Assembly: GCF_033153115.1 (NCBI RefSeq)
Contig: NW_026889778.1
Span: 26,660,001 to 26,724,000, forward strand
Length of the DNA stretch: 64,000 nucleotides
Reading direction: 5' to 3'
DNA from: Saccostrea echinata
Taxonomy: Eukaryota
Shown: one piece after another, positions 55,887 through 56,496 of the stretch
How positions within the stretch are numbered: the stretch's first letter is position 1
How the letters are laid out: every line of letters begins with the position of its first letter
The notes under the pieces: model-generated
Databases searched by the model: none
What the model saw: the letters and a program-made list of their open reading frames with translations, nothing else
What the model was told of the DNA's origin: nothing
Made by a program: the position numbers and the translations under genes

Positions 55887-56496
55887 AAGAACTACGCACG
55901 CTAACTCTCGATTCCCGCCTACATTTTACACCCATTTAATTCAATACAAATGGCAATTTGGCCGTAAAGTTTTTGTTCAATGCAAAGAACAGTTCAATGG
56001 TAATTGACTGATAATTTTAATTCCAGTGTTAAACCAGGGACCTATATACTAGTATATAGGTCCCTGGTTAAACACTGAGTTATTTACCCCTAATTCCAGC
56101 TCTTTAAATAAGGGGGGTAGACGATATTTTTCATTGAAATCGGGCTTTAAAGCATCACCACATTTTAAAATATTCTTAGTTTAAAATATATTTATTCATT
56201 ACAAATGAAATGGATTGAACAGCAGGCATAATGCCTTGGATATGAATAAATGTTCCTTAAATATTTTCTTATGTTTTACTCATATAAAATTAAACATATG
56301 AATTATTAATAAAATACAATGTTTTAGTTGTAACCCCTTTTGAAATTGGTGAAAAAATAAGAATTTTTGTAGTTTTTTGTCTGTAAACATATGCCCCCCC
56401 CCCCTCCCCCCGTGAAACACAAAAAGCTTTGGTATGAATTTGTGAAATGACAGTCCATATTACCTGTAAAAAGGAATTTTTGTTTCACGGGGAGGG

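Follow-up and report, generated by a model that had tools for sequence, protein, structure and literature searches.

What event could leave, inside a repeated sequence of an oyster genome, a perfect palindrome bounded by two copies of the same 7-mer? In the window (the whole stretch of Saccostrea echinata DNA that was analysed, 64 kb in length), GTTAAAC at 56028-56034 is followed by a perfect 32-bp palindrome at 56035-56066 and again by GTTAAAC at 56067-56073, with no internal DNA, exactly as described by the first-pass annotation, which took this structure for the heritable footprint of a P element excised with the same stagger as in flies. Comparison of the site with its genomic relatives leads to the same type of event and to a different stagger. 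Thus, the 32-bp palindrome is very probably a P-element excision scar, and it is likely that the whole statement holds, namely that it is a germ-line scar of a P-superfamily element, the non-transferred strand of which would have been cut after nt 19 of each end.

The insertion site and its host repeat

When the flanks are included, the perfect palindrome reaches 38 bp (56032-56069) and is the longest in the window, the longest palindromes in 30 first-order Markov simulations of the window measuring 14-22 bp. The two flanking 7-mers are a direct repeat and not a mirror image, their centre mismatching when folded, and the structure is thus one of TSD-insert-TSD, not of fold-back copying. The site and its surroundings comprise the following features:

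56028..56034, forward strand: left copy of the 7-bp TSD, present as a single copy in 29/29 host paralogs
56035..56051, forward strand: left arm, nt 1-17 of the family-1 P-element TIR, with the MITE and the parent showing the same 17 bases
56050..56066, reverse strand: right arm, again TIR nt 1-17; both arms share the TA at 56050-56051, a probable 2-nt microhomology join
56067..56073, forward strand: right copy of the 7-bp TSD, from the sequence
56074..56077, forward strand: four extra bases, ACTG, the reverse complement of the four bases left of the TSD; 0/29 paralogs
55885..56752, forward strand: host repeat that received the P element, ~700-870 bp, with many genomic copies and approximate ends (sequence comparison)
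55616..56812, no strand assigned: outer MITE of an unrelated family, enclosing the host repeat (sequence comparison)
57209..57256, forward strand: second TIR-only remnant with an exact 7-bp TSD and family-2-type ends, its 34 bp lying at 57216-57249 (from the sequence)
10811..11494, forward strand: host-repeat paralog that lacks the insert and has diverged at the site (~10953-10964; sequence comparison)

A search with the site returned 41 matches, and 30 loci were fetched, that is, the site itself and 29 others. In all 29, which are closer to the site than the paralog at ~10950, the insert is missing and the target occurs once; in six of them GTTAAAC is directly followed by AGTT. The absence of the insert from the ~10950 paralog, on which the first description relied, is true, but that copy has diverged at the site. 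The ACTG at 56074-56077 completes the symmetry around the insert and is private to this copy. Since it is found in none of the 29 paralogs, the near-palindromic target described earlier, although its symmetry is present, was not the original one, and part of it appears to have arisen later or in connection with repair. As a guess, these four bases might come from a template switch on the hairpin or palindrome. Among 50 sites, the outward hairpin symmetry past the TSD is longest here, the other 49 footprints having less.

Three insertions are nested at this place, the P footprint lying in the host repeat and the latter in an unrelated MITE (55616-56812), which has long TIRs, measures ~340 bp when empty and shows ~9-bp flanking repeats in two copies (by eye). 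A candidate third footprint at 55630-55667 was rejected, as it is the inner part of the TIR of this outer MITE and 283 such 38-mers share flanks and are without TSDs. The second remnant in the window sits 1.15 kb from the first, and further long self-complementary stretches, fold-back or MITE-like, are found at 60770-61555, 51727-51880 and 53114-53274. Rfam gave no match at 55000-57500. In five public runs, at most 7% of the words of the site were recovered, and the contigs obtained from four of them are paralogous host repeats only, none spanning the locus. Contigs from a run of another organism contain this palindromic core between unrelated flanks and with one base inserted, which hints at related footprints there.

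TIR-only remnants throughout the genome

Exact matches to the 17-mer end of the palindrome number 572+613 in the 923-Mb genome (control, 0). Two 8-bp ends no more than 46 bp apart give 502+514 matches when the eighth flanking base is not C (control, 1+1), a count that, divided by the non-C fraction, leads to an estimate of ~600 TIR-only remnants genome-wide. All 60 listed sites were fetched (contig 1 and part of contig 2, the first contigs listed); four of these share flanks with another site, leaving 56 independent family-1 sites, with the window excluded. A 7-bp TSD with at most one mismatch is present at 47/56 (36 exact), 8 bp fitting one site and 6 bp one site. Both TSD copies are retained, the arms are made of TIR bases alone and internal DNA is lacking, as in a Drosophila-type P footprint. 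P excisions in flies leave footprints of ~32 bp.

A sharp peak of remnant lengths at 32-34 bp had been anticipated. Remnants are indeed abundant, and their mode is 32 bp (8/56), but, with a range from 22 to 45 bp and 15/56 at 32-34 bp, their total length shows no sharp peak; what is sharp is the cut-off of the arms. In an earlier set of 50 sites, 34 junctions contain filler, 11 show microhomology and five are direct.

Identical 32-mers are found at unrelated flanks, each with its own TSD, and the rare duplicated junctions share flanks, having been copied onward inside host repeats, which bears out the heritability proposed at first. Taking into account that the scars are present in the assembly and have been copied in this way, they would be of germ-line origin. 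Carried by a host repeat, one 38-bp footprint has spread to at least seven loci (L156, L165, L169, L180, L236, L238, L239), which makes it useful for dating the two families discussed below relative to each other. In another place, ~36 bp separate a footprint from an intact MITE of its own family (L004:1501-1988 and L152), as expected of a very short local hop. In two footprints, one per family (L235 and L363), a third TIR arm is present, which points to an element end as the place of a re-insertion or of a capture during repair.

The parent element and its transposase

The same ends bound a 488-bp MITE with a 33-bp TIR, represented by 111 ends, whose copies are ~82-95% alike and carry an exact 7-bp TSD in 18/21 cases; the TIR-only remnants are several-fold more numerous than these copies. 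A 1.8-kb element with MITE ends (L131) was discarded, being a MITE that carries another insertion. The search for the parent started from 33 Pfam matches to the P-type RNase H domain, with 10-kb stretches fetched around 29 places. The family-1 parent has 8424 bp (8.4 kb), a 32-bp TIR and an exact 7-bp TSD (L201:374-8797, equal to G000:C9:26304873-26313296), and a second copy, L203, is 97-98% identical; both copies are frameshifted. Longer elements with these termini, as the first-pass annotation had supposed, do therefore exist in the form of the MITE and of the parent.

It had also been supposed that the parent would encode a THAP domain together with a P transposase, of which the second half stands. 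The parent protein matches PF21787, PF21788 and PF21789 above the cut-off, and its only PDB match is the fly transposase (6p5a_A, E 7e-15). D230, E531 and all eight GTP-binding residues (K385, K400, V401, S409, F443, D444, N447 and D528) are identical to those of the fly enzyme (compared by eye, with the list taken from PMC7776569); D303 falls outside the printed alignment, and a candidate Asp is present in the parent protein. The THAP domain (PF05485) was found neither in the parent ORFs nor in the unbroken 885-aa family-2 protein, although a tiny unrecognised 5' exon is possible, and it occurs in only two of the best 120 relatives. All of the relatives with the catalytic-Glu motif (111/111) end 44-78 aa past it, the parent transposase doing so ~65 aa past it. 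Named relatives come from bivalves, gastropods, hemichordates and echinoderms.

TIRs starting with CA and a 7-bp TSD are likewise those of the P superfamily. The hAT superfamily is characterised by a hAT transposase, an 8-bp TSD and footprints of flanking DNA without TIR bases; it was rejected here, given that the domains are P-type only, that 8 bp fits 1/56 sites and that the footprints consist of TIR bases. Other P-type families in this genome (L211:6560-9880 and L220:299-3619, also L208, L221, L222 and L226) have a second gene that encodes a PIF1 helicase together with a PHD finger (searched for L211), and in L220, which has an 8-bp TSD, this gene includes a stretch resembling the gene-2 domain described below (hhalign 86.5%). 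The families of the mollusc, hemichordate and echinoderm relatives may already be listed in Repbase.

Where the arms end

If the remnants are excision scars, the length of TIR kept on each side should tell where the inner cut was made, and the cut position is in this sense read from repair products. Family-1 arms continue in 61/67 cases from nt 16 to 17, 30/61 from 17 to 18, 12/30 from 18 to 19, 3/12 from 19 to 20 and 0/3 from 20 to 21. The drop at nt 17 reflects joining at the TA of nt 16-17, the microhomology from which the 32-mer results. Genome-wide, 175 family-1 arms have at least 19 nt and three have at least 21 nt, the latter counted by a slightly looser pattern. The base that follows 100 listed 19-nt arms is T in 42, A in 24, G in 34 and C in none (by eye), G being nt 20 of the TIR; in 32 of the 34 arms continued by G the next base is T, which reads as the opposite arm or as filler, and several of these represent one event amplified in a host repeat. 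The step from nt 18 to 19 (12/30) has a p of 0.05 if 25% of filler is C, and of 4e-5 at the observed 11%. From family 1 alone, cuts after nt 19 and after nt 20 would be hard to separate.

A second family, with a different TIR and a 7-bp TSD (parent L204:946-9291), has left 167 remnants. Fifty listed sites were taken, of which 49 were parsed and 46 are independent, sibling subfamilies being included; the 7-bp TSD is present at 40/46, and length modes are at 20 and 29 bp. Arms continue in 12/15 cases from nt 17 to 18, in 12/12 from 18 to 19 and in 0/12 from 19 to 20. A complete list of the ends that match through nt 19 contains 51, that is, three parent ends, which are the sole source for family-2 nt 20, and 48 remnant arms; among the latter, 43 stop at nt 19 and five have G next, two of these reaching at least nt 21 (by eye). 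Arms thus reach 19 nt in two families, instead of being limited to 17 nt as in a Drosophila-type footprint, and filler-free 19+19 and 19+18 junctions are present in both. Moreover, one end of the second family-1 parent copy (L203) lacks exactly nt 1-19 and starts at nt 20, one case among the 81 ends examined. The bases at TIR nt 3-7 recur at nt 20-24 in each of the two families, one position co-varying, and nt 20-32, missing from the remnants, are the part of the TIR most conserved between them.

An 8-kb element (L317:97-8129) that seemed to suggest T at family-2 nt 20 was discarded, being no TIR variant but an insertion at the AT in the middle of a family-2 footprint; we take it to encode a transposase of the Harbinger/ISL2EU type and a frame resembling YqaJ. 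L318 seems to be another such insertion at a central AT, and other transposons may target footprints. In two P families with 8-bp TSDs, the remnants (1 and 6 sites) are too few for a cut to be placed. Family 2 has at least two sibling subfamilies (e.g. L245, L253, L370, L373, L376, L379) that agree with it over the first 10-13 bases and diverge further in; their parents were not found.

The same scars could be produced by a 20-nt stagger, an improbable alternative in which family-1 overhangs would end in CG, the 38-mer would be a CG microhomology join and the 19-nt arms would have lost one base. The match through nt 20 in 34/100 listed family-1 arms and the presence of 38-mers at several unrelated flanks would agree with it. 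However, none of the 12 family-2 arms passes nt 19, no family-1 arm has nt 20 followed by A or C filler, and L203 begins at nt 20; the perfect 38-mer is, in addition, rarer than the 32-mer in the unbiased set (1 vs 8 sites of length 32), although a terminal microhomology should be favoured.

It is very unlikely that the stagger is of 17 nt as in Drosophila, as was claimed at first, with longer arms arising by chance or from templated filler. Seventeen is the modal family-1 arm (31/112 arms) and some junctions of 36-39 bp could be read as 17+17 with short duplications added, but this mode is explained by the TA at nt 16-17, and the filler-free junctions just mentioned would not be expected. Family 2 largely refutes such a stagger, since two specific bases are continued in 12/15 of its arms, for which the probability of chance continuation under a 17-nt model is 1e-9 or less.

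A still smaller chance is given to internal deletion of MITEs, either driven by hairpins between the 33-bp TIRs or resulting from aborted gap repair. Deletions of this kind do occur, since the whole TIR and a few internal bases are kept in two of the three remnants whose arms reach 21 nt, and aborted gap repair after excision could add to the tail of the distribution. Nevertheless, arms should then be spread over the 33 nt, with symmetric joins at deeper self-complementary dinucleotides, against the three arms past nt 20 and 175 at nt 19 that were seen. Finally, that the 32-mer is itself a mobile micro-element inserting with a 7-bp TSD, as identical 32-mers with their own TSDs at unrelated flanks and the excess of remnants over MITE copies might suggest, is hardly credible, since most remnants have a private junction (34/50 with filler), duplicated rare junctions share flanks and so moved inside host repeats, and the remnants lack nt 20-32, the TIR part most conserved between families and contacted by the HTH domain in the fly enzyme (PMC7776569).

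A proposed mechanism for excision and repair

P transposase cuts the transferred strand at the element end and the other strand inside the TIR, the donor break being repairable by end joining; in the fly complex, the 5' part of the non-transferred strand is paired with the transferred strand, which folds back to meet it, the C-terminal domain carries the looped single strand and the HTH domain contacts the TIR part that corresponds to nt 20-32 (PMC7776569). The oyster transposase would excise the element with an inner cut of the non-transferred strand after nt 19, so that 19 nt of the TIR would stay on each flank as a 3' overhang. End joining, be it direct, by means of short filler or guided by microhomology, would then retain at most 19 nt on either side. 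At 56035-56066 the overhangs would have paired at the TA of nt 16-17, each losing two bases, and the 32-mer, in this scheme, results from an internal join at TA, the most frequent outcome of repair.

A cut after nt 19 would place the repeat at nt 20-24 at the 5' end of the non-transferred strand. With less certainty, it can be proposed that this new 5' end pairs back onto nt 3-7 of the transferred strand, as in the fly complex, and, with similar caution, that the C-terminal domain is provided in trans by a second gene of the element.

The second gene

On the opposite strand, the parent carries a gene with a C2H2 exon and a 315-aa frame; family 2 and three other relatives have this gene too. 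The gene is a member of a stand-alone family with 617 representatives; the best 150 of the 617 are all 480 aa or shorter, and no form fused to the transposase is found among these 150. With a profile of 85 members, the best PDB match is the chain of the fly C-terminal domain (6p5a_B, E 0.021), a weak match over two short motifs, and PF12596 is matched by 3/85 members (best 2.3e-4). The gene-2 sequence alone gave no Pfam match, no Atlas match of at least 0.9 and no longer relative by word search; its structure models have low confidence (pLDDT 38 and 52) and gave no fold match.

Whereas in the canonical P/THAP9 type the C-terminal domain is in the same polypeptide, here a C-terminal-domain-like protein is encoded by a separate gene. 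Taking into account the profile match and the shortness of the transposase relatives, the domain would be supplied in trans by gene 2, and a split transposase of this kind seems rather more plausible than not. If confirmed, it would be a new domain arrangement for the superfamily.

Implications

An even chance can be given to a wider proposal: a P clade widespread among marine invertebrates would use a two-part transposase, in which a catalytic subunit without THAP is accompanied by a separately encoded C-terminal domain bearing a zinc finger of its own, and the length of its 19-nt stagger would be encoded in the TIR by a short internal repeat, the germ-line scars serving as the ruler. If this is true, the donor-cut geometry of any P family, together with the germ-line end-joining habits of its host, could be read from one assembly. 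The scars indicate that a long stagger holds in a distant mollusc clade and that its length is not fixed. For an architecturally different enzyme they lead to the prediction of a cut after nt 19, with the pairing register set by TIR nt 20-24. They also constitute a natural record of several hundred repairs of germ-line double-strand breaks with known starting ends, in an animal without genetics. Given that scars outnumber the surviving elements several-fold, annotation misses most past insertions of the family.

Comparison with known systems

The closest well-described system is the P element of Drosophila melanogaster. The oyster families share with it the RNase H fold with a GTP-binding insertion and the catalytic and GTP-binding residues (PDB 6P5A/6PE2; PMC7776569), a TIR of ~31-33 bp starting with CA, a probable long staggered donor cut and donor repair by end joining, as well as a preference for palindromic targets (PMC2577343). 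They differ from it in a TSD of 7 bp instead of 8, in an inferred stagger of 19 nt instead of the 17 nt given for the fly enzyme in PMC7776569, and in an AT-rich target; the oyster element is, moreover, 8.4 kb long, without a detected THAP domain, and encodes its C-terminal-domain-like protein in a separate gene on the opposite strand. No stagger length for other P families was found in the available portions of PMC10983969, PMC2577343, PMC3573991 and PMC9587614, nor was a footprint census found there for Galileo. In titles and the beginnings of abstracts, no report was found of TIR-only P scars in molluscs, of a 19-nt stagger or of a split P transposase, the last not having been targeted specifically.

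Galileo, a member of the P superfamily from Drosophila, has 7-bp flanking duplications as well (PMC3573991), but its TIRs measure from ~300 bp to 1.2 kb and the THAP domain is present (PMC3688188). Zebrafish Pdre2/zfTHAP9 is likewise a P-type transposase outside insects with non-autonomous derivatives and differs in its 13-bp TIR, its 8-bp TSD and the presence of THAP (PMC10983969). Nearer to the oyster families are the 'THAP9-like' relatives of molluscs, hemichordates and echinoderms, annotated as uncharacterised or as THAP9 even though THAP is found in only two of the best 120. Among them, Crassostrea gigas LOC117693074 has 80% identity over 552 aa to the family-1 transposase and the same three Pfam domains, which fits the mollusc P element proposed at the outset.
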